Of a DNA stretch of 64,000 nucleotides, positions 17,442 to 64,000 are shown one piece after another; position 1 is the first letter of the stretch; each line of letters opens with the position of its first letter. Both the position numbers and the translations under genes were made by a program. The DNA is taken from contig JAZDJN010000061.1 of NCBI GenBank assembly GCA_043803945.1, positions 1 to 64,000 of the forward strand, written 5' to 3'. Source of the DNA: a bacterium. Lineage in GTDB: Bacteria > Bacteroidota > Ignavibacteria > UBA10030. The notes beneath the pieces are model-generated. The model saw nothing but the letters and a program-made list of their open reading frames with translations, did not search any database and was not told the origin of the DNA.

Positions 17442-17544
17442 ACTGGTTTTTATCTGGAAGTGAACAATTACTTTGGAGATGATTCACATATTAGAATTTC
17501 TCAGGATGTCGTTTTGCAATGCTGTATTTTCTAATACCTAACAT

Positions 17545-18690: not shown

Positions 18691-18859
18691 ACAAAAACCT
18701 TATTGGCAGCATAGAATGAGCCGCATTATGCATCGCTTCAAGAATGATTCAGGTGCTTAAAAAATATCAACTATAGTCATCGAGAACCTCCCATAACATC
18801 TACACTATCCAGAGAGATCTTAGAAAGGTATACATGGTCAATGATAACTAATACATACT

Positions 18860-43480: not shown

Positions 43481-43486
43481 TGTCCC

Positions 43487-46258: not shown

Positions 46259-46274
46259 AGTGCGACAACGCTCC

Positions 46275-47198: not shown

Positions 47199-47678
47199 GA
47201 TAATATACTCCTCTCTAAATCAGTTTGGTGAATCAATTGTGAACGAGAGAGCAAGTTGGATCTCATCAATACTCAATCCACCCCATCATTATATATCCCA
47301 GCTTACCTTCTCATGATTGAGTCCAACATAGATAAAAATATTTGAACGAGCAACATTAGCGTGCATGTATTTGTCGCTATTGAGAATACGGATTAATCAA
47401 TGGAGTGAGATGGATTCCAGAGTTCAAGTTTCCCCGAAATCCTGCTATTCACATTGCTGTAAAGTCATAATTTTTGAGATTTTAAAGACTGCAAAATCCG
47501 GTAGCCTTCACCCAGAATGACAAGCCTTTGTCTCCGACGTTTTCAACTATGTAGGTAATGCTTAAAAAAAAATCATTCATGACGCAACATGCTTGTAAGA
47601 AAAAAATATCGTAAGTTTATTGCAAGCACAAGATATCGTTTACCCTCACATTATCTATCAGAAACAGGAGATATTCCT

Positions 47679-49454: not shown

Positions 49455-50021
49455 TTACTGGGCAGGAACCGACAATGCTTCAATCACTAATTCCCTGCCG
49501 CGTGCAAGCGCCTTCTCGTTAATTCCCAACAGGTGCTGGCGATGTGCCGGAAGTACTTTCTTCAACGCTGCAATCACATTCTCCGGTTTCACGATTGGCC
49601 TGCGTTCAAGGAAGGCACCCAACAGAATCACATTGGCGACCACCTTGCTTGTCAGCTTATGCGCTTCATCGATTGCCGGAATGCCGATGATCTCGATATC
49701 ACTGCGATCGGGGACATTAATGATAGTCGACTTCTCATAGAGAAGTAAGCCGCCCGGTTTCACTTTGGCCGCAAATTTATCCATCGACGGCTGATTGAGA
49801 ATAATCGCTGAATCAAATTTCGACAGTATGGGTGAACTGATCCGTGTGGGGGAAACAATGACGATACAATTTGCTGTACCGCCACGCATTTCAGGCCCGT
49901 ACGATGGCATCCAACTCACTTCCTTATCCTCAACCATGGCCGAGTAACTCAGGAGCTGCCCCATCGATAACACTCCCTGTCCTCCAAATCCTGCTATAAC
50001 CATTTCATGCGCTGCTTCCAT
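49455..50021 (-). CDS. 2-oxoacid:ferredoxin oxidoreductase gamma subunit (Vor-type)
   Basis: AGFGGQGVL, SWMPSYGPEMRGGTANC. Confidence 0.9.
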   Translation of the reverse strand: MEAAHEMVIAGFGGQGVLSMGQLLSYSAMVEDKEVSWMPSYGPEMRGGTANCIVIVSPTRISSPILSKFDSAIILNQPSMDKFAAKVKPGGLLLYEKSTIINVPDRSDIEIIGIPAIDEAHKLTSKVVANVILLGAFLERRPIVKPENVIAALKKVLPAHRQHLLGINEKALARGRELVIEALSVPAQ

Positions 50022-50067
50022 TTGCTCATTCCTTATACATGATCAGTGGTGGATTCACCTCTCACCG

Positions 50068-50844
50068 TCAGTTCATATTCGGTGATGGAACTTTAATATC
50101 ACCGAGTGGATAGAAGGGGAACATATGTTCTTCCATCCACTTGTTCGCTTCGAGGGGAGTCATCTTCCAGCCCGACGGGCAGTTCGAGACGATCTCGATG
50201 AAGCAGGTCCCCTTGTTCAACTTCTGATATTCGAAAGAGGCTTTCACAGCCTTCTTTAATTTTCGCACCGCCGTTGGCGTGTGCACCGATTGGCGGGTGA
50301 CATAGTAAGCACCCGGAAGGTTGGCGATCAATTCGGTTATCCTGAGCGGGTAGCCAGCGAGTGCTGCCTGCCTGCCGTAGGGCGAGGTCGTGGTCTTCAT
50401 GCCGAGCAGAGTCGTTGGTGCCATTTGTCCGCCAGTCATACCGTAGACTCCATTATTTATAAAGACGATTAGAATATTCTCGCCGCGGTTGATGGAATGA
50501 ATCGTCTCCGCAGTGCCGATGGCAGCAAGATCGCCATCACCTTGATAGGTAAACACATAGCGATCGGGCAACACGCGTTTTATACCGGTTGCCACTGCCG
50601 TCGCACGACCGTGCGCTGCCTCCTGCATATCGATGTTCATATAATGGTAGGCGAAAACGGAGCAGCCAACCGGAGCGACGCCGATGGTCTTATCTTGAAT
50701 ACCCAGTTCGTCGACAACCTGCATCAAAACGTTGTGTGCAGTACCATGCCCGCAGCCGGGACAATAATGCATCGGGGTATCCGTCAGGGTTTGGGGCTTC
50801 TTGAAGACTAGATCAAATCCAATTGTGATTGGTGGAAGACTCAT
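50068..50844 (-). CDS. 2-oxoacid:ferredoxin oxidoreductase beta subunit (Vor-type, TPP-binding)
   Basis: HYCPGCGHG, APVGCS, AHGRA, YQGDGDLAAIG, YGMTGGQMAPTT. Confidence 0.9.
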   Translation of the reverse strand: MSLPPITIGFDLVFKKPQTLTDTPMHYCPGCGHGTAHNVLMQVVDELGIQDKTIGVAPVGCSVFAYHYMNIDMQEAAHGRATAVATGIKRVLPDRYVFTYQGDGDLAAIGTAETIHSINRGENILIVFINNGVYGMTGGQMAPTTLLGMKTTTSPYGRQAALAGYPLRITELIANLPGAYYVTRQSVHTPTAVRKLKKAVKASFEYQKLNKGTCFIEIVSNCPSGWKMTPLEANKWMEEHMFPFYPLGDIKVPSPNMN

Positions 50845-50848
50845 ATGG

Positions 50849-51946
50849 TTACTTCTCCATTTCTACCGCCGCACCATGGGCGATGGTCTCGATTTCATGA
50901 AGGATATCATCTGGTGAAGGAATCATTCCTCCCATCCGGCCGTGAAAGAAGACCGGACATTTTCCTTCGACACCAAGTTTCACATCTTCCAGCATCTGAC
51001 CCGCATTCATCTCGACAACGAGTACTGCCTTAACCCGCGAGGCAATTTCATGGATCACCGCATATGGAAATGGATAGACGGTAATCGGGCGAACGATGCC
51101 GACCTTCAGTCCATGTTCGCGGGCAAGTTCCTTTGCTTTCTGACAGATGCGCGCGACAAGACCAAACGCTACTAAAACAATGTCGGCATCTTCGGTGTCG
51201 AACGTTTCAAAGCGGAGTTCATTCTTCTCGATCTCTTTGTACTTTGCCTGGAGCTTCAGATTGACCTGCTCCATGACTTCAGGCTGCATGAACAGCGACG
51301 TAATAATGTTTGCATTCCGTGATGGTTCTTTTCCTCTTGTTGCCCATGGCTTCTCGATATATGGAAGAACTCCTTTGGGTTTCAGCACCACTTTCTCCAT
51401 CATCTGGCCGATGGCTCCATCGGAAAGTATCATGACACCCATACGGTATTTCTCAGCAAGCCGGAATCCTTCAAAAACAAAATCGGCCATCTCCTGCACC
51501 GATGAAGGGGCAAGAACGATGAGCCGGTAATCTCCGTGACCGCCGCCTTTAGTCGATTGAAAATAATCCCCCTGTGAGGGTTGAATCGTCCCGAGTCCGG
51601 GACCGCCCCGTTGAATGTTTGCAATGAGGAATGGCAATTCAGCCGACGCCATGTAGGAAATTCCCTCTTGCATCAGACTGATTCCGGGACCTGAAGAAGT
51701 GATCATCACGCGTGCCCCCGCACCTGAAGCGCCGTACACCATATTGATCGCAGCAACTTCACTTTCGGCTTGAAGGATTACTGCCTCGTGATTGGGCTGT
51801 TCTTCCATCAGGTATTCCATCACTTCTGATTGCGGTGTGATCGGATATCCGAAGTACGCTTGCATTCCGGCACGAAATGAGGCTTCAGCAAGAGCCTCGT
51901 TGCCTTTCATCAACCGGACTTCAGGAGTGTTACTGGTTTGTTCCAT
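50849..51946 (-). CDS. vorB: 2-ketoisovalerate:ferredoxin oxidoreductase VorB-type (alpha-like) subunit
   Basis: MKGNEALAEA, GYPITPQSE, QAESEVAAINMVYGA, GLGTIQPSQGDYFQSTKGGGHGDY. Confidence 0.88.
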   Translation of the reverse strand: MEQTSNTPEVRLMKGNEALAEASFRAGMQAYFGYPITPQSEVMEYLMEEQPNHEAVILQAESEVAAINMVYGASGAGARVMITSSGPGISLMQEGISYMASAELPFLIANIQRGGPGLGTIQPSQGDYFQSTKGGGHGDYRLIVLAPSSVQEMADFVFEGFRLAEKYRMGVMILSDGAIGQMMEKVVLKPKGVLPYIEKPWATRGKEPSRNANIITSLFMQPEVMEQVNLKLQAKYKEIEKNELRFETFDTEDADIVLVAFGLVARICQKAKELAREHGLKVGIVRPITVYPFPYAVIHEIASRVKAVLVVEMNAGQMLEDVKLGVEGKCPVFFHGRMGGMIPSPDDILHEIETIAHGAAVEMEK

Positions 51947-51980
51947 ACTATTCTGCCTTCAATTCACAATGAGGAAAAGA

Positions 51981-52232
51981 TTATGCACCGACTGCTGCAG
52001 CAGATTTTTTCGCAGAGTCTTTCGCCTGTCGGTAAACAGTGATTGCCGAATCCGGGCACACCAGGGCACAGTTGATACAACCGGTGCAATTATCCTGGGC
52101 CAGTTCAGCGAAACGATATCCTTTAAGGTTAATTTTTCCCGAGAGGTGAAGACTGTTCTGGGGACATGCATTAATACAGAGCTCGCATCCTTTGCAAATC
52201 TCCACTTCAATTGCGACGGTACCACGGATCAT
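51981..52232 (-). CDS. 2x[4Fe-4S] ferredoxin, oxidoreductase delta subunit
   Basis: CKGCELCINACP and CTGCINCALVCPD. Confidence 0.9.
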   Translation of the reverse strand: MIRGTVAIEVEICKGCELCINACPQNSLHLSGKINLKGYRFAELAQDNCTGCINCALVCPDSAITVYRQAKDSAKKSAAAVGA

Positions 52233-52298: not shown

Positions 52299-52314
52299 GT
52301 CAAGTTTGATGCCA
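52299..52314 (-). promoter_or_regulatory. Putative sigma54 (-24/-12) promoter of the Vor-type operon
   Basis: Minus strand TGGCAT-CAAAC-TTGAC (GG-N10-GA rather than GC), about 70 bp upstream of the ferredoxin start. Confidence 0.45.
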
Positions 52315-52443
52315 TGGCAGAAATGGCATTCTAATGGATGAGAAAGCTGTTTTTTCATTAGAAAGGGCGATTCTATTACCAACTTTGGGAACGGCCAAAA
52401 TCGGCTTTCCTGATTCCAGAAACAGAATAAGAAAATCCCTCAA

Positions 52444-52998
52444 TCATAGGGATTGAGAAAGATTTCGGAGCAGATCCGATAACTGCCGATGGCAGTCTGG
52501 GCATAAATCGGACCTCTTGAGATCGATTTCCTCGACGTACGTTGATGAACGCATTACACATTCGAATTGACGGCAATGGTAGAGGCCGAAGGTATGGCCG
52601 AGCTCATGGATGATTTCCTTTTCGATGCGCTGAATCAACACTGGCCTGCTGGGAGGAATTCCGTAGAACTCATTCATTAAACGGTACATCGAAACGACCG
52701 CCATCGGTCCGTTCAATTGAGCTTCGCCGAAGACGAATGTCAGGACGGGAATAAAGAGATCGACATCGACCAGTGTGACAAGTTTATCTTTCTGGTTTGA
52801 GTACTTCCCCAATTGCTGGGCGAGGATGCCGGTGGAATTATACTGGCCACGCGAGGCATCGAAGACACGCTCGAGGTTGAGCGTTTCCTGAAGAAGTGTT
52901 GTTTGTACTGAAAACACATCGGCGATCCGCGACTCCAGCGGTTTGAGCTGCGCCTCGCTGATCGATGAAGCGTTGAGCATGTGGATCACGGGGATCAC
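52444..52998 (-). CDS. Archaemetzincin family Zn-dependent metalloprotease
   Basis: RGQYNS, DVDLF..LTFVFGEA, HELGHTFGLYHC...CVM..S...EIDLK...CPDC. Confidence 0.92.
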   Translation of the reverse strand: MIPVIHMLNASSISEAQLKPLESRIADVFSVQTTLLQETLNLERVFDASRGQYNSTGILAQQLGKYSNQKDKLVTLVDVDLFIPVLTFVFGEAQLNGPMAVVSMYRLMNEFYGIPPSRPVLIQRIEKEIIHELGHTFGLYHCRQFECVMRSSTYVEEIDLKRSDLCPDCHRQLSDLLRNLSQSL

Positions 52999-54341
52999 TA
53001 CGGTCGCTTCAACCCGTATTTTTCGATCTTATTATATAATGTGACCCGATCGATTTGCAGGATTTCCGCTGACCGGGTAATATTCCAATTATTCTGTTGA
53101 AGGATCATAGAGATATGCGCCTTCTCCATAGAGGCAAGTGATCCGGCCGGAAGAATGTGGTTCTTCTCGTGCAATTGGAAGGGAAGATCTTCCGGTTTCA
53201 TGGTGGGAGGTTTCCCTACGACCATCGCGCGCTCGATAACATTCTCCAGCTCGCGCACATTCCCAGGCCAGTTGTACCGGATGATGGAATCCATCGCTTC
53301 CGACGAGATGCTTTGGATCTGTTTATTCATCGAGCGGGCGTACTTCCTGAGGAAATAATTGGCCAGCAGAGGGATATCCCCTTTGCGCTCGCGCAGCGGC
53401 GGGATGATAATCGTAAAGACATTCAACCGGTAGTAGAGATCTTCGCGGAAGAGTTTTTGTTCGACAGCTTCTTCGAGATCCCTGTTCGTCGCGCAGATGA
53501 TTCTAAAGTCGACCTTGATGATCTCATTGCCGCCGACGCGGCTGAATTGCTTTGTTTCAATGGCTCGCAACAGATCCATCTGGGTTTTCGGATGGATATT
53601 CCCTACTTCATCGAGAAAGAGCGATCCTCCATCGGCAAGCTCGAGTTTTCCTTTGCGGCGGTACTGGGCACCGGTAAAGGCACCACGCTCGTGCCCGAAG
53701 ATTTCACTCTCCAATATTCCCTCAGCCATACCGCCACAATTCACGGCCACAATCGGGAAATACTTCCGATCGCTGTTACTATGAATCGCGCGGGCAATCA
53801 ATTCTTTTCCGGTGCCGCTTTCTCCTCGAATCATGACCGTTGTATCGGTTTTGGCAACCGTCGAAATCAGATTGAAGACATTTTGCATTTGCAGCGACTC
53901 ACCGATAATCTCATCAGCTTTACAGAACTCGGAAATCTGTTCTTTCAGCTTGACGTTCTCGGAAGCCAGCATCCGTTGCTTGAGCGCGTTGGTTACAAGA
54001 TGGGAAAGGTGATCGGGATCGACAGGTTTCGTGACATAATCGAAGGCTCCGGCCTTCAATGCCTGCACGGCAGTATCGACTGTTGCATGGGCGGTAATGA
54101 AAATGACCGCGGCATTCGTGTCAATTTCCCGGATATGGGTATGCAATTCCATTCCATCCATGCCGGGCATTTTAATATCGAGCAGAATGATATCCCATTT
54201 CTGGGCCTGGAGTTGTTTGATCGCTTCAGCAGCGTTTTCAGCAGATTTGAGAGTATACCCATCTTCACGAAACCACTTCGTTAACGAATCCCTCACCACC
54301 TGTTCATCATCTACGATCAGTATCGATGGTACAGATTTCAT
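52998..54341 (-). CDS. Sigma54-dependent response regulator (NtrC/AtoC/ZraR family)
   Basis: Receiver ILIVDDE...LDIKMPG...KP; AAA+ GESGTGKE, ESEIFGHERGAFTGA, FLDEVG, FREDLYYRL, WPGNVREL; Fis-type HTH. Start MKSVP after AGGAG. Confidence 0.95.
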   Translation of the reverse strand: MKSVPSILIVDDEQVVRDSLTKWFREDGYTLKSAENAAEAIKQLQAQKWDIILLDIKMPGMDGMELHTHIREIDTNAAVIFITAHATVDTAVQALKAGAFDYVTKPVDPDHLSHLVTNALKQRMLASENVKLKEQISEFCKADEIIGESLQMQNVFNLISTVAKTDTTVMIRGESGTGKELIARAIHSNSDRKYFPIVAVNCGGMAEGILESEIFGHERGAFTGAQYRRKGKLELADGGSLFLDEVGNIHPKTQMDLLRAIETKQFSRVGGNEIIKVDFRIICATNRDLEEAVEQKLFREDLYYRLNVFTIIIPPLRERKGDIPLLANYFLRKYARSMNKQIQSISSEAMDSIIRYNWPGNVRELENVIERAMVVGKPPTMKPEDLPFQLHEKNHILPAGSLASMEKAHISMILQQNNWNITRSAEILQIDRVTLYNKIEKYGLKRP

Positions 54342-54354
54342 ATGGCTCCTTATA

Positions 54355-56004
54355 TTAATCGAGAGAGGAAAACTTTTTGTCTTCGTCTTTCTTGTTAATG
54401 GAAGATTGATCAACGGACCGTCGATAGGTCGGGAAGACCAATATCACGGTGGTCCCTTTCCCAACTTCCGACTCGACGGAAATTTTGCCTCCATGGCGTT
54501 CCATGATGCCATACACGACTGAGAGCCCCAAGCCGACACCCTGACCATCGACCTTTGACGTGAAGAAGGGTTCAAAAACCTTCGCCCGGTCTTCCTCCAA
54601 GATCCCAACGCCAGTGTCATGGATGTTGATGGTACAAAACTCCTCGTTCTCATCGATAGTCACAGTCACCGATAGTCTGCCCCCATCGGGCATTGCTTCC
54701 ACAGCGTTGACGAAGAGTGCTACCAATGCCTGTTGAATTTGATTCTCATCGCAGAGAAGGGGCACTTCTTTCGGAGGATATGTTGTCGAAAATTTTACAT
54801 TAGAAATTTGCAGGTGATGACGCACAAGCTGTTCCGCTTTTTCTACAATACGTTGTACGGGCGCGGCTGTTAGTTCGCCGATCTGCCGTTTCGAGAACAG
54901 AAGCAAATTATTCACAATCGTTCCGCATCGATCGGTCTCGCGTCGTATCAACTCGATGTCCTCGAGTGTATTTATTATCTCCGGTGTTAACTGTTCCTGC
55001 TTTTGAAGGCGGCGGGCAATCAGTTTTGCGTACGTTAAAATTCCTTCCAGCGGATTATTGATTTCGTGAGCAACCGTCGCCGCCAGCTTCCCCAGCGAGA
55101 CCATCTTCTCGATCTGAACGATCTGATCATGCATTTTGGTGATCTGCCCTGTTTTCTCCTGAACGCGCTGCTCGAGGGTATTTGCCCATTCCAGATTTTT
55201 TTCTTCTGCGGCACGCAAGGAATCCATCATGTTGTTGAAGGATGTGGCAAAACGGCCGATCTCATCCTTTCCACCGATCGGGATCCGAAAATCGATATCG
55301 CCGGATGAAATTCTCTGTGTACCCTCCATCAGCTCTTTCACCGGCCGGAGAATTGTGATATTGAGAAACAGAACAGAAAGCATGGCAATGCCGAAGGTGA
55401 GGACAATGGTGACGATGATAATCTGGGTCTGCGTTTCTGCAAGGCTCTTATCCACCTCCGCGAGCGACATGCGAACATCGAGCACACCGATGATTTTCCG
55501 TTGTTCGGGGCTCGGGTGGCAACTTGCTCCGGCGCAGTTCGGTTCATTCTTGATGGGATTGATGAGGCCAAGGAGGCGTTGCCCGTCGCTGCGTGAATAA
55601 ATTCTGACACGGCTGGGCGCCGGTACCGACTCGAGTGGTTTTTCCTGATCGTGACAACCGTAACACGCCTCAGCTTTTAGGTCGACACTCTTGCCTTTCT
55701 CTGTGCTATCCGTGGAAAACCGTATCTCACCCCGCTTATTATATATCCGAATTCCTTCCACACCAATCTGGCCTCCGATCGTATTCATAATTTGATAGAC
55801 ATCTTCTTTTCTGTTGAGAAGCATGCTATAGTGCGTTGAGCTTTGAATGAAATCGCTCACCCTGGTGGCACTTCCGAGAATTTGCGCCATCATTCTGTCA
55901 CGATAGAAATTGATAAAGTAGTATGAATAAACTCCGAAGAGAATGACGAGGAGAAAGAGAGAGCCGATGATAAGCCGACCGCGTAATGTTTGAATCCAGC
56001 GCAT
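54355..56004 (-). CDS. Sensor histidine kinase with putative heme-c periplasmic domain and HAMP
   Basis: Two TM helices around CYGCH and CAGASCH; HAMP (DEIGRFATSFNNM); VAHEINNPL, NAVEAM, DTGVG, FEPFFT, GVGLGL. Confidence 0.92.
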   Translation of the reverse strand: MRWIQTLRGRLIIGSLFLLVILFGVYSYYFINFYRDRMMAQILGSATRVSDFIQSSTHYSMLLNRKEDVYQIMNTIGGQIGVEGIRIYNKRGEIRFSTDSTEKGKSVDLKAEACYGCHDQEKPLESVPAPSRVRIYSRSDGQRLLGLINPIKNEPNCAGASCHPSPEQRKIIGVLDVRMSLAEVDKSLAETQTQIIIVTIVLTFGIAMLSVLFLNITILRPVKELMEGTQRISSGDIDFRIPIGGKDEIGRFATSFNNMMDSLRAAEEKNLEWANTLEQRVQEKTGQITKMHDQIVQIEKMVSLGKLAATVAHEINNPLEGILTYAKLIARRLQKQEQLTPEIINTLEDIELIRRETDRCGTIVNNLLLFSKRQIGELTAAPVQRIVEKAEQLVRHHLQISNVKFSTTYPPKEVPLLCDENQIQQALVALFVNAVEAMPDGGRLSVTVTIDENEEFCTINIHDTGVGILEEDRAKVFEPFFTSKVDGQGVGLGLSVVYGIMERHGGKISVESEVGKGTTVILVFPTYRRSVDQSSINKKDEDKKFSSLD

Positions 56005-56027
56005 ATACGAGTTTCCGAATCGATTTT

Positions 56028-56043
56028 GTCAGAAACCGTGCCA
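56028..56043 (-). promoter_or_regulatory. Putative sigma54 promoter upstream of the histidine kinase
   Basis: Minus strand TGGCACG-GTTT-CTGAC (GG-N10-GA). Confidence 0.35.
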
Positions 56044-56358
56044 GATACAAACTGTGGAATAATTAAACAATTCAAAGAATCGGAACCTCAAATATGCAGT
56101 TCTAAGAATCAAAATCGGTAAAATTGCTAATGATAGGAAGTGAGGAGTGGAGATTCTGATTTTGAAAATCACATAATTATGATTTTTATCCTTCATTTAT
56201 ACAGAATGTGGAGAAGCAGAATGGGATTAGGAGAGCCAAAGATAATGGTGAAGGAGTAGTCCTTGGATTGAATCACAATTATCTTCTAATGAGGGGGGTA
56301 CTCTAAGGCGGAACAACATCCGGGGCAATGAACGATCTCAACCTCGAATGTCTAAAGA

Positions 56359-57174
56359 TTATTGGATATGGAACTTTAGAAAGACCTCGCTTAGGGCCTG
56401 GCAATATTTCTTTGGGCCAAGAATTTCAGATACTTTATCGATCAGCATACCCCCGTCGGCCATCGTCATTCCTGCACGCGTCTGGCGCTTAGAAAGATAA
56501 CTCACAACGAGATCATTGAATTGCTTAGCATCTTCTCTATACAGGTCTGTGGCGCTTTCGGGACTGAGAAATCGTGACCGTTCATATCCCTCTTTCGAAC
56601 TATCTATATTAAAAAGCCATCCTTCCCCCCAGGCATCTTTTAAAAGCAGATGAGGATTCTTTTTCAGCATTGCATTCGTTGCGACAACCTTTCCCCGGAT
56701 TGGAGAGAAGAGTGGCAGAGTGCCACCCTCTATCACGATCCAACAACAGATTTTATCTTGTGTCAATTGCTCTCCAATGGATGGAAGGATAATAGCTCGA
56801 GGTGAGAGAAGTTTTGAGACAATTCCACTTTCCAAACCAACGATGACCATCTTATGCCCTTCTTCTTTCAACCACATATGCCGAGTATCGTACAGTATGC
56901 CTGCTCGAAGCGTATGCTCTTCTATTGGCGAGGTCGGTTCTTGACGGCTGACAGTTTGTTGGGAATTTTCTTGCGATGTAAGCTCCCCTCGCAGCGCTCG
57001 ATCTAACGGACAGCGCTCGCATTCAAAATTGCGCTCACAGAGCTGATACGAGAGAATACCGGCAGTCATCCAAACACAACGGATCTCATCAGATGGCACA
57101 ATCGGGTGTTTTCCTCTATGGCTGAGATCGCCCATGGAGACACCTTGTTCAGCGTGATCCTGCTCAGTCATCAT
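56359..57174 (-). CDS. GcvH-like protein with N-terminal Cys4 domain, no lipoyl Lys
   Basis: CVWMTAG...CERNFECERC; H-protein motifs HMWL, LPSIG, SPIRGKVVATN, DAWGEGWLF; turn reads IEGG. Confidence 0.75.
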   Translation of the reverse strand: MMTEQDHAEQGVSMGDLSHRGKHPIVPSDEIRCVWMTAGILSYQLCERNFECERCPLDRALRGELTSQENSQQTVSRQEPTSPIEEHTLRAGILYDTRHMWLKEEGHKMVIVGLESGIVSKLLSPRAIILPSIGEQLTQDKICCWIVIEGGTLPLFSPIRGKVVATNAMLKKNPHLLLKDAWGEGWLFNIDSSKEGYERSRFLSPESATDLYREDAKQFNDLVVSYLSKRQTRAGMTMADGGMLIDKVSEILGPKKYCQALSEVFLKFHIQ

Positions 57175-57227
57175 TCACTCCTCTCAAGCTTCTATAAATC
57201 CCCCGACAACATTGTCCTCGAACCTCC

Positions 57228-57944
57228 TCACAAAGATGATGCATCATCGGCATCCGGAACGTCGAGGAGGAATTCTGATGCTATTTCGTGCCATTTGTCT
57301 TGAGAAAGGTTCTTGGCAATACCGAGAACAGGGATTCCTCCGTCCTGAAGAACCATTCCGATATTCCCGCTGCTACGGGCGCGTAACGTGTCCACTGTTT
57401 GCTCCATCCAAGCGCGAGCCAATTTACCCGAGAGAAGATTCGTCACATCATTCTGTAGACCCACCGGACGAATCTTCATGAGCCATCCCTTCTCATAAGG
57501 ATCATCGTTGACAACCTTCGGCGACGCTTGGACTTTTTCATTAACGGCGACTACGCATCCGCTAACCGGCGATCTCATTGGAATAGACTTTGACTCAACT
57601 ATGATATCCCAAGCTCTCTTCCCCTGCTGGATATGCTCCCCAAGCCTGGGAAGATGAATCGTATGCATCTCGCCGATAAGTTTCTGAGCAAAATCGTCCA
57701 TTCCAATGACGACAGTCTCCTTATCCTCTACACGCGCCCAACTGTGGCCTTGATGGAAATACAGACCGTCAACGATCCGAAACCACGGTCGCGACACTGG
57801 CGGCTCGGGAGATACTCTCCCTACTGGAGGAACCGAAGTCTTATTGAGGAATTTCCAGAAGGCAACCAGGGTCAGTAAGAAACCGATCACAAGGAGATAC
57901 TCAATCCCCTTAGTCGCAAATATATCTACATATTGATTACCCAT
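57228..57944 (-). CDS. Membrane-anchored GcvH-like protein
   Basis: N-terminal TM (TKGIEYLLVIGFLL); HSWARVE...IGMDDFAQKLIG, SPVSGCVVAVN, NDDPYEKGWLMKI. Confidence 0.85.
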   Translation of the reverse strand: MGNQYVDIFATKGIEYLLVIGFLLTLVAFWKFLNKTSVPPVGRVSPEPPVSRPWFRIVDGLYFHQGHSWARVEDKETVVIGMDDFAQKLIGEMHTIHLPRLGEHIQQGKRAWDIIVESKSIPMRSPVSGCVVAVNEKVQASPKVVNDDPYEKGWLMKIRPVGLQNDVTNLLSGKLARAWMEQTVDTLRARSSGNIGMVLQDGGIPVLGIAKNLSQDKWHEIASEFLLDVPDADDASSL

Positions 57945-59233
57945 TGCTTTTCTGCTCCTTCTTTCGGTACAAACTTTGTTTCACGGGTCACTTCAGATCG
58001 CGAACGTGCCCAAGCCGGGGGATCGCTCAGGATCGGCATTCTGTTGACGATCCATCGAAGAACGATAATCTCGGCAACGACTACACCCAGTGTGATCTCG
58101 AGTTCCATCCATGAGGGAATATATCTCTCAATTGCATACCATTTGAAAGCGATGATCGAGACATTCAATCTATTTATAACAATTCCTATGAGTGTCACAA
58201 CAGCCGCAATTCGGATCAACGACAAATTGCGGAATCGCACCGCTTGAGTATAGAGACGCACGGGAATCAGGACGAATCCCACAACCTCAACAAGGAACCA
58301 CCATCCCATCGGCGTATTAATGTAATTCCACTGTTGCCCATGGATAAACACAAGGACTTTCAGGAAGAAGTAGATATACATTGTTCCCGCACACACCCGT
58401 GCCAGACCGATCACGATGTCGTCGTGCTCCAAACGATGTTGAGGACTGATTTGTTTTCTGAATACCTTCTGACTGATTGATCCTTCGAAAATGACCATGG
58501 ACAACCCAGCAAAAATGCTGGAAACGAAAAAGAGGATCGGTATGAATTCGGAGTACCAGAGGGGATGGATTTTGCTCTTCGCCATCAGGAACAGGGCACC
58601 AAGACCGGATTGATGCAACGTAGAGAGTGTGATCCCAAAAATGACGGCACCGAGGGTCAATCCGCCAAGGAACTTCCGAATCCGTTTCCATCCCAGCCAT
58701 TCGGCGATTGCCGGAGAGAATTCGACGAACTCAGCTATCATATACAGCATGAAGTGCCACGCAACAAGAAACATCACCGAACTCACACCAAACGAATTGC
58801 CAATAATGGGATTTATGACGTTCCACGGGCGTCCCAGGTCAAACAGGAGCGCACCCGCGTAGAAGACGTAGGCCAGGAAACCGTTCAGAACGGTTATGCG
58901 CACGATCGGATGGTACTTCTCGAGGCGAAGGATGTAGACCATAAATGTCACAACATACGCTCCGCCTGCGAAAGCAACACCTGTGATGACGTCAAACCCG
59001 ATCCAAATTCCCCAGGGGAAGTCCTGAGAAAGGTTGGTGGTCGATGCGAGCCCTTTGGTGAACCGTATCACGAGAAGAACCGCCGCTGTCGCGAGCACAA
59101 CAGCAGCGAACAGGTTGAACGGAGTCAACAGCTTTCCTTTCGGTTTCATTTCACTCTTGAGAAAGCTACCGAACCGTTTGGTTTCAGAGATCAGGAGAGA
59201 CCACTTATTCTCATTGTCCGTCTGGTGTTCCAT
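57926..59233 (-). CDS. NrfD/PsrC family membrane protein (HybB/HmcC-like)
   Basis: PWGIWIGFDV..GVAFAGG, DLGRPW, SSVMFLV, LSTLHQSGLG, HPLWYS, NRLNV, YIPSWME. Confidence 0.9.
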   Translation of the reverse strand: MEHQTDNENKWSLLISETKRFGSFLKSEMKPKGKLLTPFNLFAAVVLATAAVLLVIRFTKGLASTTNLSQDFPWGIWIGFDVITGVAFAGGAYVVTFMVYILRLEKYHPIVRITVLNGFLAYVFYAGALLFDLGRPWNVINPIIGNSFGVSSVMFLVAWHFMLYMIAEFVEFSPAIAEWLGWKRIRKFLGGLTLGAVIFGITLSTLHQSGLGALFLMAKSKIHPLWYSEFIPILFFVSSIFAGLSMVIFEGSISQKVFRKQISPQHRLEHDDIVIGLARVCAGTMYIYFFLKVLVFIHGQQWNYINTPMGWWFLVEVVGFVLIPVRLYTQAVRFRNLSLIRIAAVVTLIGIVINRLNVSIIAFKWYAIERYIPSWMELEITLGVVVAEIIVLRWIVNRMPILSDPPAWARSRSEVTRETKFVPKEGAEKQWVINM

Positions 59234-60080
59234 AGAATTCCTGGTCGCTTTCTTTTTTGGTTGCGTTGCTTAGGCCAAGCAGGAACGCCGGCCACAGAGT
59301 GAGTACCACGGGCACTGCGTAGAGATAGTCTTTGCTGAGTTCCGGATACGGGATTGTTCCCAGGTCAGTCCGAAATCCGAGTTGCCCAAACGGAACACTG
59401 GCAAGATACATGTAGCTTGTCCCTCCAGCCTCATCCTCGCCGTATATGTGGTGTGCATAGGTTGACGGATTGTTCGCGATGAGAGCTCTCCCCGTCTCTA
59501 TCAACTCCCTGCGGTTTCCGAATTTAATTGCCTCAGCCGGGCAAGCATCTGCACAGGCCGGACTCTTGCCTTCTTCGAGCCGATCCCAGCAGAGATTGCA
59601 TTTTTGAATCTTCGGAATCGCGCTGTCATACTCAAACTTGGGAACGTCGAAGGGGCAGGAAAGCATACAGAAGCGGCAACCCATGCATTTATCCTCACGC
59701 CATATGACCGGTCCTTCCTCGGTCTTCAACATCGCTTTTGTAAGGCACGCTGAGGCACAGGCAGGTTGATTACAATGCATGCATTGCTTTTTGACAAACA
59801 TCTCCCCTTTGTCTGTTTGAAAGCGATTGACCACAGACCACTGGATCGTCGACAGCGACCTTTCTTTCTTGAACACCTCGGGATTGGAATCGGGTTCGGG
59901 GAATCCGTGAGCTTCCGCGCAGGCGAGCTCGCAGCTTCGGCACCCGACACAACGCGTGGTATCAACGAGTACTCCGATGAATTCCTTATTCTCCGATCTA
60001 TTTTCAGCCTCCGCGCGATCTACCCCAAGTACCGCTACTCCTACTCCGCTCAGTGTTTTGACAAAGTTCCTTCGATTCAT
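59211..60080 (-). CDS. Tat-exported multi-[4Fe-4S] protein (HybA/HmcB/NrfC-like) with C-terminal TM
   Basis: MNRRNFVK Tat motif; CVGCRSCELAC, CMHCNQPACASAC, CMGCRFCMLSCP, KCNLC...PACADACP; IYGEDEAGGT. Confidence 0.92.
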   Translation of the reverse strand: MNRRNFVKTLSGVGVAVLGVDRAEAENRSENKEFIGVLVDTTRCVGCRSCELACAEAHGFPEPDSNPEVFKKERSLSTIQWSVVNRFQTDKGEMFVKKQCMHCNQPACASACLTKAMLKTEEGPVIWREDKCMGCRFCMLSCPFDVPKFEYDSAIPKIQKCNLCWDRLEEGKSPACADACPAEAIKFGNRRELIETGRALIANNPSTYAHHIYGEDEAGGTSYMYLASVPFGQLGFRTDLGTIPYPELSKDYLYAVPVVLTLWPAFLLGLSNATKKESDQEFYGTPDGQ

Positions 60081-60159
60081 GGATTCCTCTAGCTTAGGTG
60101 TACGGCTGCTCGGCTACTGGATGATCAGTACCGTTCTAATTACCTCACTGGAACCAGCA

Positions 60160-61308
60160 CTAGCGCCTGAAAAACTTGCTGACGACGATATTCCATTCAC
60201 GGTCTTCCAACTTCCCCATTTGCCCGGAATGCAGAGAGTCATTACTCCCGTTTCCTCCACCATTTGGTCGACCGACGGATTTGATGAAGTGGTCAATTTC
60301 TGTTTGGAAGAAGCTCACCGCTGTCTTGCCGATCTTGAGTTTCGAGAGCTCTGCGTCGAAGTTCTCTGCGTCAACGACACAAATCCAGTTTCTGCCGTAC
60401 GGAGTGATCTCCAGCGCCTCAAGGTGTTCACCGAGATACTTGTTGATCTTCGTGACGCGGCCGCTGACAGGAGCTTGGAACGGGATCATTCGATGTCCGC
60501 ATCGTATAGAGAAGAGGGGCTGCCCGGCGTTCACAGTCATCCCAAGATTCGGGAACTCGATATCATCGATTCGCCCAAGCAGTTTCTTGGCAAAATCATC
60601 GACGCCGATCTTGACACCTCCATCCGATTCCATCGTGAGCCAACAATGACCTTCGGAGATGAACGCTCCCCCCGGAATAGCGAACTCGGCAGTCGGGAAG
60701 TATCCCATTTCCGTCACGTGGCTGACATGCACCCTGGGTTTCAGCTCGCTGTTAATTCTCTCCTGACGTCGGAAGAGGAATTTCTTCACCAACTCTATCA
60801 GTTCGTTCTCCGTGAAAGGCTTCTGAACATAATCCATCGCCCCATGTTTCATACACTCCACGGCCGATTGTACAGTTGCATATCCCGTCACGATAATGAC
60901 ATCGATATCGGGGCGTAGATGCTTCACGGACTTCGCTACCTCCTCGCCAGTCATTCCAGGCATCTTCAGATCCGTGAAAAGAAAATCATAGTGATGCTGC
61001 TGGATGAGACCGAGAGCTTCAGAACCAGTTTCGACTGTATCAATGGAATAGCCGTCGAGAACGAGAATCTTTCGAAAACTGTCGAGAATGACAGATTCAT
61101 CGTCCACACAGAGAATCCGAGCTTTCGGATTCTGCACTTCGGCGCGTTTCAACGATTTCGCCTCCCGGCTGAAGTCGAGCCTCAAGCTAACCGCCAAGGC
61201 AGCCTCCCGCTCCTCCCTCAGCTTTTTTTCCTTCATTTTCTTTAACGTGATGCGAAGCAGAAAGTCAGCTACAACAAAGATGATAAGAGCGAGAATGAAC
61301 AATGGCAT
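60160..61308 (-). CDS. Membrane-anchored receiver domain + GcvH-like domain fusion
   Basis: Start MPLFILAL after AGGAGG; receiver CVDDE...TDLKMPG...VTGYA...QKPF; C-terminal HCWL...IGVDDFAKKLLG...APVSGRVTKIN...PYGRNWI. Confidence 0.88.
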   Translation of the reverse strand: MPLFILALIIFVVADFLLRITLKKMKEKKLREEREAALAVSLRLDFSREAKSLKRAEVQNPKARILCVDDESVILDSFRKILVLDGYSIDTVETGSEALGLIQQHHYDFLFTDLKMPGMTGEEVAKSVKHLRPDIDVIIVTGYATVQSAVECMKHGAMDYVQKPFTENELIELVKKFLFRRQERINSELKPRVHVSHVTEMGYFPTAEFAIPGGAFISEGHCWLTMESDGGVKIGVDDFAKKLLGRIDDIEFPNLGMTVNAGQPLFSIRCGHRMIPFQAPVSGRVTKINKYLGEHLEALEITPYGRNWICVVDAENFDAELSKLKIGKTAVSFFQTEIDHFIKSVGRPNGGGNGSNDSLHSGQMGKLEDREWNIVVSKFFRR

Positions 61309-61385
61309 GACGTACCTCCTTTGAACATAATGATCTGCACACAATGTGCTCGACCAGCAGGAATATTATCTTTTAATTTACGTTT

Positions 61386-62207
61386 TCAATGATCTCCGAT
61401 ACATGTTGTCAGCTGTTTGAGCGCATAGGCCACATCTGTTGGGAGGATCCGGTACAACCACGCGGCGAAGTAAGGATCCTTTTCGAGCGCCTTTGGACTT
61501 GCGAGAAGCGTTTCGTTCCGTTCGACGATCCTTCCGCTGATCGGACTCAGGACATTGTGGACGAGACCATCCTCCGATGCGATCTCTGCACACGCCGAGC
61601 CCTGCACAATCTCGTAGTTCAAATCGTAATAACGAACTTCCGCGACGGCTGATACAGTTTTAACGAAAATGTCCGTGACGCCAATCAGGCCGCTGCCGTT
61701 CGGCTCGATGCATGCCCAGCTTAAATTCCCCAGACGGTGGTAATTGGCTGGACACGGCACGGCCAGACCGGATAGATCAATCTCACCCTCACCTCGCGGC
61801 ACTGTGTTTTGAGTCAGCGTATGATACCGGAGACCGCGATGAATCGCACTTTCGAGTTCATCTGCGGTAAAAGGTTTCGGCACAAAATCAATCGCTCCAT
61901 TCTTCAGCGCGTTTACGGCGTTTTGCATCGTCGAGTATCCAGTGATCATTATCAGCGGAGTGAGGACCCCCACACGTTTCATTGAATCAAGAATATAAAA
62001 ACCGTTGAGTTCTGGCAACATGATATCACACACAACGAGCCTGTACGTGTTCTTTTGGAGCTTCTCCAATCCCGTCCTTGCTTCTGCAGCTGATTCGATG
62101 GTCAGTCCTCCGGCCTCGCAAACCCTGCACACCCCATCCCGAACGACCTGTTCATCGTCAATCACAAGTATATCAATCGGTTTACTCACAGCACTCACCC
62201 TTTTCAA
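61386..62207 (-). CDS. Receiver domain + GcvH-like domain fusion
   Basis: Receiver VIDDE...CDIMLP...ITGYS...PKPF; C-terminal SWA...IGVTDIF...SPISGRIVERN...DPYFAAWLYRI. Confidence 0.88.
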   Translation of the reverse strand: MKRVSAVSKPIDILVIDDEQVVRDGVCRVCEAGGLTIESAAEARTGLEKLQKNTYRLVVCDIMLPELNGFYILDSMKRVGVLTPLIMITGYSTMQNAVNALKNGAIDFVPKPFTADELESAIHRGLRYHTLTQNTVPRGEGEIDLSGLAVPCPANYHRLGNLSWACIEPNGSGLIGVTDIFVKTVSAVAEVRYYDLNYEIVQGSACAEIASEDGLVHNVLSPISGRIVERNETLLASPKALEKDPYFAAWLYRILPTDVAYALKQLTTCIGDH

Positions 62208-62250
62208 GAGAATGCGTTGACGGCGACGTGCGCCGTACGATCATGGCTCT

Positions 62251-63999
62251 TCACGAAATAGGGAGCCGGATTCTGAAGGTAGTCCCGCTGCCAAGTTCGC
62301 TTTCCACCGAGATCGTACCATTATGATTATCGATAATCCCCCAGATTACCGCTAATCCAAGTCCTGTTCCCTTCTGACCCTTCGTCGTGAAGAATGGCTC
62401 GAAGATCCTCGATAGGTCTTCCTTTGGGATGCCAACACCTGTATCTGCAACGCACACTTCCACGTACACCTTCTTCCCGACAGAGTCAACAGTAGCCCAT
62501 CGTTGCCAGCCGCACTTTGTATTGATGCAAAACTCGACATCTCCCTGCGCCGGGATCGAAAACGAGAACAGGTTGCTGCCGCACACAGGGCACTTGCCCT
62601 CTTCCATCACGAGAGAGACATTACATTCAGGGCAAACAACATCGAGTTGTTTGTCTTCACGGACTTCGAATTTATATCGATGGCGATTGAGTCCATAAAT
62701 GGGATCCAACATAATGAATCCTTCATCTCCGTTGGATCGCGCTTTTACTCTGATGGAGGGAATACCCTCGATCTTGAACTCCGTGGTAATCAAGTCGTGA
62801 CCGCTCGGACAGCGTGCAGCCTTGATATGGACAATTCCTTGTGGAGGTAATCTCAGGATACCCGAGGCGATCGTCACCGTACCCGTGCTATCCTCGATTG
62901 CATCGGCGGCGTTGACCAGGAGATTGACAAACACCTGCTGCATTTGATTAGGATCCAGAGTGATTTTCGGAACGTGAGGATCGATGCTGCGAACAACCTT
63001 CAGCCCTTTGATGGCAAGTTGATGCTCAACAACTGCCACAGAGCGGTCTATGATTTCATTGATATTAGAGAGGCTCTTCTTTGGAATAGACTGCCGGGCG
63101 AAATCGAGAAGGCTCTTGACAATCTCCCTGCTTCTGATTGTCTCGCGAACAATAATCTTCAGATCGTCATGCAACTCCGGATTGTTCTGGCTTCTCTTGA
63201 GCAGAAAGCTCGCGTACGTCAGAACTCCCGTCAAAGGATTGTTGATTTCGTGAGCTATCCCGGCCGCCAGACGTCCGAGAGAGGCCATTTTGTCTGATTG
63301 AAACAACTGGAGTCGGGCCTCGGATAGCTTCATGGTCATCGTGTTAAAAGATTGCGCCAGAAAACCAATGTCATCCTTTCCCAGATCTGGAACCGTATAG
63401 CTGAGGTTTCCGCTTCCGACCTGTTTTGTGGCGTCAAGAAGTACGCCTACCGGTTTGCTCACCCATCGATTGACGAAGTACGCGATGATGAGGCTCGCCG
63501 CGATTATGGCGCTCAAAGCAAATACGCCGATCTGGATGGCACTTGCCTGAATCCTCTCGTCCACATCTGCGAGGGAGATCGTCACGTCCAGTACACCAAG
63601 AACCTGCTGCTGACTCGAGTGGGCGTGACATGAAGCATCCCAACATGATCGCTCGGTATAGATCGGGTTGATGACACCGAACACCCTTGCAGAATCAGGA
63701 TGAATGCGGAAGATGCGCGTTCGTTCCGAAATGGAGAGCCTCTCGAGAGGCTTGTCCGCGGCGTGGCATCCATAACAGCTCTCGGCTTGTTTGTCTACCA
63801 TCCGACCGATGCTTTCCTTGCGCGAGGAGTAGATGATCTCTCCTTCCTTGTTTAGCACGCGAACTTCGTTGATGGCAGGATCCGATCCGATGTCATTGAT
63901 GATGATATGGATTCGTTCCCGCTGATTCAGGAGCATATCGTACCGCGTTCCGTTCCGTACCGTTTCGCTCAACTGCATCGCGTGCCGCTCGACTTCAGC
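62251..63999 (-). CDS. Sensor histidine kinase with putative heme-c periplasmic domain and a Cys-rich insertion in the HATPase domain (5' end outside the window)
   Basis: Frame is open to the edge (AEVERHAM...); CYGCH, CWDASCH, TM, HAMP, IAHEINNPL, NAADAI-[Cys-rich insert]-DTGVG, FEPFFTTK, GTGLGL. Confidence 0.9.
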   Translation of the reverse strand, partial: AEVERHAMQLSETVRNGTRYDMLLNQRERIHIIINDIGSDPAINEVRVLNKEGEIIYSSRKESIGRMVDKQAESCYGCHAADKPLERLSISERTRIFRIHPDSARVFGVINPIYTERSCWDASCHAHSSQQQVLGVLDVTISLADVDERIQASAIQIGVFALSAIIAASLIIAYFVNRWVSKPVGVLLDATKQVGSGNLSYTVPDLGKDDIGFLAQSFNTMTMKLSEARLQLFQSDKMASLGRLAAGIAHEINNPLTGVLTYASFLLKRSQNNPELHDDLKIIVRETIRSREIVKSLLDFARQSIPKKSLSNINEIIDRSVAVVEHQLAIKGLKVVRSIDPHVPKITLDPNQMQQVFVNLLVNAADAIEDSTGTVTIASGILRLPPQGIVHIKAARCPSGHDLITTEFKIEGIPSIRVKARSNGDEGFIMLDPIYGLNRHRYKFEVREDKQLDVVCPECNVSLVMEEGKCPVCGSNLFSFSIPAQGDVEFCINTKCGWQRWATVDSVGKKVYVEVCVADTGVGIPKEDLSRIFEPFFTTKGQKGTGLGLAVIWGIIDNHNGTISVESELGSGTTFRIRLPIS

Positions 64000-64000
64000 A

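Follow-up and report, generated by a model that had tools for sequence, protein, structure and literature searches.

A fourteen-gene array of NrfD/Fe-S membrane modules, GcvH-fold proteins and haem-motif sensor kinases in a genome of the Ignavibacteria

What role might proteins with the fold of the glycine cleavage H protein (GcvH) play when they are encoded among membrane sensor kinases, response regulators and the subunits of NrfD-type membrane modules? The question is raised by an array of genes on contig JAZDJN010000061.1 of genome assembly GCA_043803945.1 from a member of the Ignavibacteria. The stretch of DNA that was analysed (hereafter the window) represents the first 64 kb of this 147-kb contig, and a first-pass annotation had described in its last part a set of ten genes, which were taken for a candidate redox-signalling system. 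All ten open reading frames (ORFs) were confirmed on the minus strand, and Pfam and NCBIfam scans returned the domains after which they had been named. The ten genes are real and correctly read, and their common orientation and overlapping or abutting arrangement were borne out by the ORF positions and domains. The complete array comprises 14 co-oriented genes on roughly 16 kb (contig positions 52444 to 68194), three quarters of which are covered by the window, and the intergenic gaps among the ten genes of the window range from -59 to +79 nt, with the single exception of 354 nt in front of the gene for the kinase HK1 (Table 1). Two cassettes, paralogous to each other and both widely conserved, make up the array. 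The function that we infer for them, tentatively and at somewhat less than an even chance, is that of quinone-linked membrane modules resembling the Nhc and Hmc complexes, which would be equipped with GcvH-fold cytoplasmic subunits and placed under both transcriptional and receiver-domain control.

GcvH-fold proteins and their partners

The first-pass annotation had counted four GcvH-like proteins. This number is correct for the window, but the array holds five, the fifth (TMGcvH5) being encoded beyond the window end. All five score above the Pfam cut-off for GCV_H (51 to 91 bits), and the only further match in the genome is a canonical gcvH gene (158 bits) on another contig. In a sequence alignment, the column of the lipoyl lysine, which is found within EAVKAVS in the canonical GcvH of the same genome, contains E, D, H, S and G in the five paralogues, the glycine belonging to the soluble protein Cys-GcvH. 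Likewise, no conserved lysine is present at this position in 35 transmembrane (TM) TM-GcvH, 52 TM-REC-GcvH and 57 REC-GcvH sequences, the latter two types combining the GcvH fold with a receiver (REC) domain, and the gcvH cut-offs of TIGR00527 and PRK01202 were not reached (best TIGR00527 score 82.8 vs 115.85). Because the lipoyl lysine is missing, the five predicted proteins cannot be lipoylated in the usual way, which is consistent with the earlier proposal that the GcvH-like domains are non-catalytic. The absence from the window of gcvP, gcvT, lipoate ligase, sHdr, hydrogenase and molybdoenzyme domains was also confirmed, by scanning 29 further ORFs (E<=1e-8) and the neighbours with Pfam, nine of the 29 ORFs lacking any match.

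As judged from its AlphaFold model (pLDDT 90.9), the GcvH fold of REC-GcvH is not in doubt, since Foldseek aligned the C-terminal half to solved H proteins with a TM-score by target of 0.86 and an rmsd of 1.3-1.7 A. In the 57 REC-GcvH sequences, C146, C200 and C263 are conserved to at least 90% and H211 is invariant, the latter being located in the hairpin that bears the lipoyl lysine in GcvH. An N-terminal C-x13-C-x5-C-x2-C motif was detected in 11 of 16 aligned Cys-GcvH sequences, the protein of the array included. With respect to the membrane-anchored forms, an intramembrane aspartate is present in the TM helix of all 15 sequences of the TMGcvH5 type, and a D-x3-R motif in that of 50 of the 52 TM-REC-GcvH orthologues, while the HmcD-like N-terminal residues of the D-GcvH type are invariant in five orthologues. 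The GcvH domains of TM-REC-GcvH and of the TMGcvH5 type form one clade (support 97/85). Four classes of GcvH-like proteins can be distinguished in this way, namely the TMGcvH5 type, TM-REC-GcvH, the D-GcvH type and the soluble forms with Cys motifs. From these sequences, TM-REC-GcvH looks like a protein of the TMGcvH5 type with an inserted receiver domain, and the membrane anchors of both types look specific.

A C-terminal extension, termed QDGG, is common to the TM-GcvH classes and Cys-GcvH and occurs in a degenerate version in TM-REC-GcvH. A profile of this extension matched 1478 clusters (50% identity) of a global library when the limit was set at E<=1e-3, and 260 with E<=1e-10; in the best 150 of the 1478 matches it is nearly always located at the end of proteins of about 215-250 amino acids, or in fragments. 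The extension alone gave no usable match in the ESM Atlas. The REC-GcvH family comprises 601 clusters (90% identity) at E<=1e-5, and all 120 matches listed are proteins of about 250-275 amino acids that combine REC and GCV_H. Among named relatives, the one closest to the fifth GcvH-like protein comes from "Ignavibacteria bacterium GWA2_54_16" (77% identity). The 'GcvH-related protein' of the Desulfovibrio type (NF045810) was considered as a relative and dropped. It was found in 2 of 151 sampled genomes of another phylum; in one NF045810 locus no NrfD module was recognisable in listings of the first residues of ORFs that a naive caller had produced from GC-rich DNA.

The Fe-S/NrfD pair of the window had been regarded as an orphan, a description that does not hold: the pair is HmcB/HmcC-like and followed by an HmcD-like helix, and a second pair together with a 13-haem cytochrome is encoded past the window end. 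Fe-S1, the translation of which shows an RR signal and four Cys groups, has its best match in HmcB (NF045715; 318.6 bits vs a cut-off of 420) and also matches Fer4_11. NrfD1 is most similar to HmcC (NF045714; 418.5 vs 550 bits), and residues 9-33 of D-GcvH match HmcD (NF045712; 24.1 vs 34 bits), such that the order Fe-S1, NrfD1, D-GcvH equals hmcB-C-D. In the second pair, Fe-S2 matches HmcB best (290.7 vs 420 bits) and HybA with 244.7 bits (cut-off 263), and NrfD2 matches HybB (354.5 vs 450 bits) and then HmcC (270.6 vs 550 bits). The cytochrome reached 48.2 bits with HmcA (cut-off 400) and 24.8 bits with the nine-haem cytochrome c family NF045784 (cut-off 640). No cytochrome b (haem-b, HmcE) or CCG (HmcF) domain was detected by Pfam in the 14 array genes. 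As judged from this architecture only, the membrane parts of the array resemble the layout of the simplified Nhc complex. The first-pass annotation had proposed to look beyond position 64000 for a catalytic subunit, which would make the set an ordinary respiratory operon. An extra subunit is indeed encoded there and supports this possibility in a weak form, but it is a subunit for electron entry and not a catalytic one. A two-chain prediction for NrfD1 and D-GcvH, based on shallow alignments of seven and five rows and run without controls, scored 0.27 vs a mark of 0.32, which counts neither for nor against docking.

The kinases HK1 and HK2 both contain a CxxCH and a CxxxxCH motif in the periplasmic loop between two membrane helices; those of HK1 read CYGCH and CAGASCH and line up with their HK2 counterparts. 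Across an alignment of 47 sensor regions that includes HK1, the residues C115, C118, H119, C159, C164, H165 and M62 are invariant and H167 is nearly so, which bears out the haem-c motifs assigned earlier to both kinases. An AlphaFold model of the HK2 sensor region (pLDDT 83.3) consists of a single Cache/PDC domain between two long helices, and its predicted helix 114-120 contains C115-H119. Foldseek matched this model to WalK, KinD, DctB, DcuS and CitA and, at E 2e-4, to the haem-c sensor GSU0935 (3b42). A sequence search of the HK2 sensor against the PDB was discarded, having returned chance-level matches to the haem motifs of NrfA only (E about 1.4). The haem-c Cache family PF11845 was matched neither by HK1 at E<=0.01 nor by full-length HK2 at E<=0.001, and HK1 gave a weak match to PF21563 (E 0.005). 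Both kinases are treated here as a separate dihaem variant of the haem-c Cache idea, with putative haem attachment. Additionally, the HATPase domain of HK2 is split at about residues 425-550 by a conserved Cys-rich insertion of roughly 120-130 amino acids, with the motifs CPxGH, CPEC and CPVC and two further cysteines, that is missing from HK1 and may represent a zinc-ribbon-like module. The cysteines of this insertion and both HK2 haem motifs are conserved in 51 sequences.

Conservation and control of the two cassettes

Cassette A consists of the genes for the Fe-S protein, the NrfD subunit, the multihaem cytochrome, the haem kinase, REC-GcvH and TM-REC-GcvH. For the survey of its conservation 80 related loci were retrieved, 61 of which were scanned with the 14 array proteins, the other 19 matching the receiver domain only. 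The carriers are labelled Ignavibacteriota, Bacteroidota, Calditrichota, Gammaproteobacteria and Elusimicrobia; the co-occurrence in other genomes that the first-pass annotation had proposed to look for was thus found in many genomes of several phyla. The HK2 gene is located directly upstream of the REC-GcvH gene in 46 of the 49 loci with enough sequence, and the three misses (L015, L027 and L050) are artefacts of the overlap filter, as HK2 was found in all three. The whole upstream set of Fe-S, NrfD, 13-haem cytochrome and HK2 genes is present in 39 of 44 loci, the misses being these three together with L034 and L039, two metagenome-assembled genomes (MAGs) that bear the label Gammaproteobacteria. 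The multihaem cytochrome encoded upstream in L034 is a different one, and TM-REC-GcvH is located ahead of the module there; the gene order of L039 is the same. The TM-REC-GcvH gene directly follows that of REC-GcvH in 50 of 52 loci; L068 and L070 were excluded on account of broken frames. Most loci of the Ignavibacteriota contain cassette A without a DNA-binding regulator. Clustering of the flanking ORFs of 59 loci revealed no family beyond the cassette in more than nine loci and no conserved catalytic neighbour; glutamate dehydrogenase, PPDK-like and FAD-oxidase neighbours were considered as conserved partners and rejected as lineage-specific. Cassette A is also present in a cultured strain, Rosettibacter primus 4148-Me (L027).

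In a Melioribacter MAG, cassette A is followed by a stretch (L044:12147-20789) encoding a fusion of a multihaem cytochrome with a cytochrome b561-like domain (815 amino acids), a c554-like cytochrome, a 420-amino-acid protein without Pfam match, two more multihaem cytochromes, ccsA and hemA. The ORF sizes in L027 match this stretch, and the cytochrome cluster may represent an electron conduit served by cassette A.

Cassette B consists of one or two TM-GcvH genes followed by those for the Fe-S protein, the NrfD subunit, Cys-GcvH, HK1, the NtrC-type activator and the archaemetzincin, and it recurs in the order to which the host belongs. The array of the host is arranged as the first gene of cassette B, then cassette A, then the HmcBCD-like trio and then the rest of cassette B. 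The survey of cassette B covered 20 kb around each of 20 D-GcvH homologues from the host order. The structural genes, HK1 and the activator are encoded on one strand in about 12 of the 20 loci, and an archaemetzincin homologue follows the activator in eight and is present in two more. Four loci (L115, L118, L119 and L126) contain two TM-GcvH genes, Fe-S and NrfD, and no kinase gene was seen within the 20 kb retrieved for each. These counts are approximate because the ORF caller was naive: it selected the longest non-overlapping ORFs and miscalled genes in L114, L116, L117, L122, L123, L125 and L128. The QDGG profile gave matches in 71 of 101 sampled genomes of the order, in 69 of the 95 of good quality and in seven of nine families. 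A small Cys-rich ORF of 93-94 amino acids is located just upstream of cassette B in two loci (L123:9435-9719 and L128:9363-9644), and none is present in the window.

The activator encoded after HK1 matches Sigma54_activat (228 bits), Response_reg (119 bits) and HTH_8 in Pfam and contains GAFTGA in its translation, and it remained below the specific equivalogs AtoC, NtrC and ZraR. A rpoN gene is present in the genome. The archaemetzincin reached 161.7 bits with NF033823 (cut-off 145), and its translation contains HELGHTFGLYH followed by a Cys4 motif.

Two -24/-12-like elements were located in the window, upstream of HK1 and of vorD (Table 1). A TGGCAY-N5-xTG(A/C) motif is present 28-59 nt upstream of HK1 homologues in seven loci, and a site that is nearly identical to the element of the host, TGGCACGATTTCTGC, precedes HK1 in a genome of the same family. 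In the 120 nt upstream of HK1, TGGCA is present in 7 of 14 loci, and for the first TM-GcvH gene the corresponding figure is 12 of 18, as compared with 25 of 291 other genes of the same loci that served as control. In the window, TGGCAC-N5-TTGCW with up to two mismatches matched 28 times vs 28.25 expected. The conserved elements in front of the kinase operon and of the structural genes suggest autoregulation. Accordingly, the output through sigma54 that had been proposed is plausible in view of rpoN and the conserved TGGCA elements, but the clearest sites precede the operons of the cassette itself. For the same reason the membrane module would be at least a regulated output and not only an input, and the earlier view of the Fe-S/NrfD pair purely as sensor input is not upheld. 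An effect on the Vor operon, also considered earlier, has a -24/-12-like site in its favour, but the search pattern was derived from this site and the one before HK1, so that its rarity in shuffled sequences does not represent an independent test. In four loci (L113, L114, L117 and L120) a canonical TGGCAY-N5-xTGC is located before a glutamate dehydrogenase gene that flanks the cassette; it probably belongs to nitrogen control and not to the cassette.

Table 1. Genes of the array and associated sequence elements
Feature	Position	Strand	Basis or remark
Terminator-like hairpin and T run	52436..52460	-	covers archaemetzincin stop codon; consensus scan only
-24/-12-like element TGGCATCAAACTTGAC (TGGCAT-N5-CTTGAC)	52299..52314	-	upstream of vorD (51959-52225)
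Archaemetzincin-family Zn protease	52444..52998	-	last gene of HK1-NtrC operon; without signal peptide
NtrC-type sigma54-dependent response regulator (REC, AAA+, HTH_8)	52998..54413	-	Pfam
HK1, membrane histidine kinase, HAMP-HisKA-HATPase	54355..56004	-	Pfam and translation
-24/-12-like element TGGCACGGTTTCTGAC	56028..56043	-	about 25-40 nt upstream of HK1 start
Cys-GcvH, soluble	56359..57174	-	Pfam GCV_H 51 bits
D-GcvH (TM-GcvH)	57228..57944	-	GCV_H 91 bits; overlaps NrfD1 stop by 19 nt
NrfD1, NrfD-family membrane subunit, HmcC-like	57926..59233	-	Pfam NrfD and NF045714
Fe-S1, Tat-exported four-cluster ferredoxin with C-terminal anchor, HmcB/HybA-like	59211..60080	-	NF045715, Fer4_11
TM-REC-GcvH	60160..61344	-	Response_reg 103 bits, GCV_H 64 bits
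REC-GcvH, soluble receiver and GcvH fold	61386..62207	-	Pfam, AlphaFold model, Foldseek
HK2	contig 62251-64146	-	631 amino acids, with HAMP, HisKA and split HATPase; cut at 64000 by window end; contig sequence beyond window
Class III cytochrome c, 13 CxxCH	contig 64150-65298	co-oriented	3 bases from HK2
NrfD2	contig 65295-66584	co-oriented	abuts 13-CxxCH cytochrome
Fe-S2, Tat Fe-S protein	contig 66536-67438	co-oriented	
TMGcvH5, fifth GcvH-like protein	contig 67523-68194	co-oriented	N-terminal TM helix

The fifth GcvH-like gene is followed on the contig by a 380-nt spacer and then by hypE, a gene for a transporter of the major facilitator superfamily, one for a URO-D/MtaA-like methyltransferase and hypD (68574-73193, directly upstream of the array), an arrangement that was not seen in the annotated loci of relatives. 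No Rfam family reached its gathering score in the array and its flanks. On the other side, the window contains two separate gene clusters for 2-oxoacid:ferredoxin oxidoreductases (42022-44845 and 49455-52225), the latter being vorDABC-like with an 88-amino-acid two-cluster ferredoxin encoded by its first gene. Near the cassette, positions 45017-48764 encode a DUF1015 protein, a D-2-hydroxyacid (SerA-like) dehydrogenase and a class-V aminotransferase; DUF1015 and the aminotransferase are also present in the Melioribacter MAG (L044:699-3053) and the dehydrogenase in L111, L115 and L126. This recurrence looks like synteny of the lineage rather than a functional link. Farther away (15741-20584), a gene for a YhcG-type PDDEXK nuclease is located between two gamma-glutamyltranspeptidase genes. 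Three weak matches to NiFe-hydrogenase large subunits were detected elsewhere on the contig of the array (83211-85064, 95524-96789 and 111420-112559).

Possible functions of the cassettes

According to the reading that we prefer, the module would shuttle electrons between periplasmic carriers and menaquinone, as is thought for complexes of the Nhc type, and the GcvH-fold proteins would be non-catalytic cytoplasmic subunits in place of the HmcE/F subunits of Hmc, the membrane forms being held by a specific N-terminal helix and the others being soluble with Cys/His motifs. The haems of the kinases would respond to a haem ligand or to redox changes in the periplasm. HK1 would phosphorylate the NtrC-type regulator, which in turn would drive its own operon and the structural genes from sigma54 promoters. 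HK2 would phosphorylate REC-GcvH and TM-REC-GcvH, the receiver-bearing versions of the GcvH subunits, and the phosphorylated proteins might then sit differently on the complex, so that electron flow is tuned at the post-translational level. The module is the candidate target of these receivers because it is the only other conserved product in most cassette A loci and because they contain neither a DNA-binding nor an enzymatic domain. In this scheme we infer all binding steps, the direction of electron flow, the phosphotransfer partners and the role of the protease. Its most far-reaching form would be a two-component system with an electron-transport complex as output, in which a dihaem kinase alters the docking of the receiver-GcvH proteins and thereby gates quinone-linked electron or proton transfer within seconds and without transcription. 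We regard this form as possible, if unlikely; it would mean that the GcvH fold has been repurposed from a swinging-arm cofactor carrier to a regulated adaptor of a membrane complex.

Several observations weigh against the preferred reading. None of the array proteins reached an equivalog cut-off of Hmc, Hyb or Nhc, and a resemblance to Hmc and Nhc is therefore claimed instead of membership. NrfD-type subunits cannot send electrons to the cytoplasm without a haem-b partner, and a cytoplasmic subunit has therefore no obvious redox job. Apart from the haem domain of HK1 itself, cassette B contains no cytochrome, and this lack of a separate one fits a sensing role of the Fe-S/NrfD pair better than bulk respiration. 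REC-GcvH was detected at E<=1e-40 in only 12 of 101 genomes of the host order (25 candidates scored per genome), which makes cassette A accessory there; judged from the matches of the QDGG profile, cassette B is common within the order. With regard to the putative control regions, the TGGCAC of the host is located about 150 nt from the start of the first gene and thus farther away than in the relatives, the putative sigma54 sites have degenerate -12 halves, the relatives in these counts share descent and do not represent independent observations, and strict sigma54 patterns are not enriched genome-wide, their 11 and 10 matches being close to a chance expectation estimated by hand from pattern degeneracy and genome size. 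Owing to this degeneracy, kinship and lack of enrichment, the sites are called conserved -24/-12-like elements and not proven promoters.

Along the lines of the first-pass annotation, the cassettes could instead form a dedicated redox-signalling device, in which the Fe-S/NrfD pair, together with the cytochrome in cassette A, would support no bulk electron flow and only poise the kinase haems against the menaquinone pool, and the GcvH-like proteins would act as adaptors that tie in the receivers. In cassette B, no periplasmic redox partner of the Fe-S protein is co-conserved except the haem domain of HK1, the haem motifs are invariant, kinase and module proved inseparable in the 39 of 44 cassette A loci, and neither cassette conserves a catalytic subunit, the flanks varying between loci. 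For a probe, however, two complete four-cluster Fe-S/NrfD modules of the HmcBC/HybAB-like kind together with a 13-haem cytochrome are heavy equipment. Moreover, four cassette B loci contain the structural genes without a kinase in 20 kb, and the -24/-12-like elements are located before structural genes, as in a regulated output. Taken together, such a device appears unlikely, with a chance that is nonetheless far from trivial. In another explanation the GcvH-like proteins would be true carriers. A metal, an Fe-S cluster or another group would be bound by the Cys3His set in REC-GcvH and by the Cys4 motif in Cys-GcvH, and the proteins would accept electrons or sulfur at the cytoplasmic face in the manner of HmcE/F, DsrC or the lipoate-binding proteins of sHdr. 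The conserved cysteines of both types and the invariant H211 in the lipoyl hairpin favour this idea, and the cytoplasmic partner of Hmc and Tmc is itself described as unknown in a passage of PMC4215793. It is rendered quite improbable by the hairpins of the 35 TM-GcvH and 52 TM-REC-GcvH sequences, in which no Cys, His or Lys is conserved, by the missing haem-b or CCG subunit for transmembrane electron transfer, and by the five of 16 Cys-GcvH homologues that lack the Cys motif, possibly as a result of wrong start calls.

The predicted Cache fold of the kinases, with the first CxxCH in a short helix, raises the question of gas or stress sensing. Haem Cache domains fused to signalling modules act as sensors of NO and not of O2, according to part of the preprint PMC12889525, and by analogy the haem kinases might sense NO or another ligand, the cassette forming a nitrosative or oxidative stress response in which the module supplies periplasmic reductant. 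Neither kinase matches PF11845, however, both contain two haem motifs rather than one and at other positions of the fold, and no NO reductase or detoxifying enzyme is conserved in the annotated flanks of relatives, so that we consider this explanation very improbable. Finally, the module could be an ordinary HybA/HybB-type anchor for a periplasmic hydrogenase that is encoded elsewhere, located beside unrelated regulators by chance. Such an anchor would be in line with the HybA and HybB scores of Fe-S2 and NrfD2, with hypE and hypD just upstream of the array, and with a Tat-signal NiFe hydrogenase on another contig (C42:87598-90047) that has a strong large subunit and no adjacent membrane-anchor gene. 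All of these scores are below the equivalog cut-offs, though, and no hyp or hydrogenase genes were seen among the annotated flanking ORFs or the recurrent flanking clusters of relatives. Across phyla the module is accompanied by the kinase, REC-GcvH and TM-REC-GcvH, and this association is therefore not due to chance; this last explanation is the least probable. The closest NiFe large-subunit matches to the array are at least 15 kb away or on another contig. That the anchorless hydrogenase donates electrons to the module is speculation; Nhc and Tmc are tied to hydrogen use in Desulfovibrio in a section of PMC4215793.

The modules of NrfD and Fe-S proteins are among the most widespread quinone-interacting units in anaerobic respiration, with cytoplasmic partners and a regulation that are mostly unknown, and the cassettes described here supply them with partners that form a fixed set. 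Should the receiver-GcvH fusions act on the complex, as the preferred reading has it, two-component signalling would gain a new output class through which electron flow is controlled directly after translation; should the module feed the haem kinases instead, the quinone pool would be read in a new way. Both can be approached in the cultured carrier Rosettibacter primus strain 4148-Me. The database names of the cassette proteins are generic ("glycine cleavage system H protein", "CheY-like chemotaxis protein" or "hypothetical"), and such GcvH and CheY labels would mislead the metabolic reconstruction of Ignavibacteriota, Bacteroidota, Calditrichota and other anaerobes.

Comparison with known systems

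We know of no characterised system with a GcvH-fold receiver output that is paralogous to the subunits of a complex. In open-access full text, no paper was found that links GcvH with NrfD and a multihaem cytochrome or with response regulators, and none of those listed for HmcB or HmcC mentions glycine cleavage; the statement of the first-pass annotation that this architecture matches no characterised system therefore stands within this scope. The parts of the array are of known kinds; their combination and a receiver with GcvH-fold output appear to be undescribed. The paper on respiration in Melioribacter roseus (PMC5492636) treats, in the part available, other kinases and CISM enzymes and not the cassette.

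The closest parallel is provided by the Nhc and Hmc complexes of Desulfovibrio (NhcABCD and HmcABCDEF), with which the array shares a multihaem c3-type cytochrome, a Tat four-cluster Fe-S protein, an NrfD-family subunit and an HmcD-like single helix. According to a portion of PMC4215793, Nhc consists of a cytochrome, an HmcB-like, an HmcC-like and a small TM subunit without E and F, and the array likewise lacks HmcE/F. It differs in that its cytochrome contains 13 haem motifs instead of 9 or 16 and is positioned after Fe-S and NrfD, in that its HmcD-like helix is fused to a GcvH fold, and in that its operon also includes two haem kinases, three response regulators and additional GcvH-like proteins. 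Moreover, the closest named relative of the host is labelled Ignavibacteria and is not a Desulfovibrio.

With the H protein of glycine cleavage the five proteins share the fold, as do the lipoate-binding LbpA proteins of sHdr sulfur oxidation. In contrast to GcvH, they lack the lipoyl lysine, remain below the gcvH cut-offs and are encoded without gcvT, gcvP, lipoate ligase or sHdr genes nearby, and they add a TM helix, a receiver domain, Cys motifs and the QDGG extension.

On the sensory side, HK1 and HK2 resemble GSU0582, GSU0935 and the sCache_haem family in a predicted extracytoplasmic Cache/PDC fold with haem-c motifs that feeds a HAMP domain and a kinase. In this family (DUF3365/PF11845), the signalling members are NO-sensor-like and the stand-alone ones have redox roles, as stated in part of the 2026 preprint PMC12889525. 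The same part of the preprint places the sCache_haem motif between strands 3 and 4, whereas those of the kinases are located after predicted strands 2 and 4, a numbering taken from the model only. HK1 and HK2 further deviate in having two motifs, CxxCH and CxxxxCH, and no PF11845 match.

The respiratory Tor and Ttr operons have their own two-component system, and ArcB and RegB are quinone-sensing kinases. As in these cases, a kinase and a regulator of the array are encoded together with the electron-transfer genes that they probably control, and sensing would be tied to the respiratory redox state. Unlike in these cases, two of the three regulators of the array contain no DNA-binding or enzymatic output domain, and their output domain is instead a GcvH fold that is paralogous to the presumed subunits of the complex.

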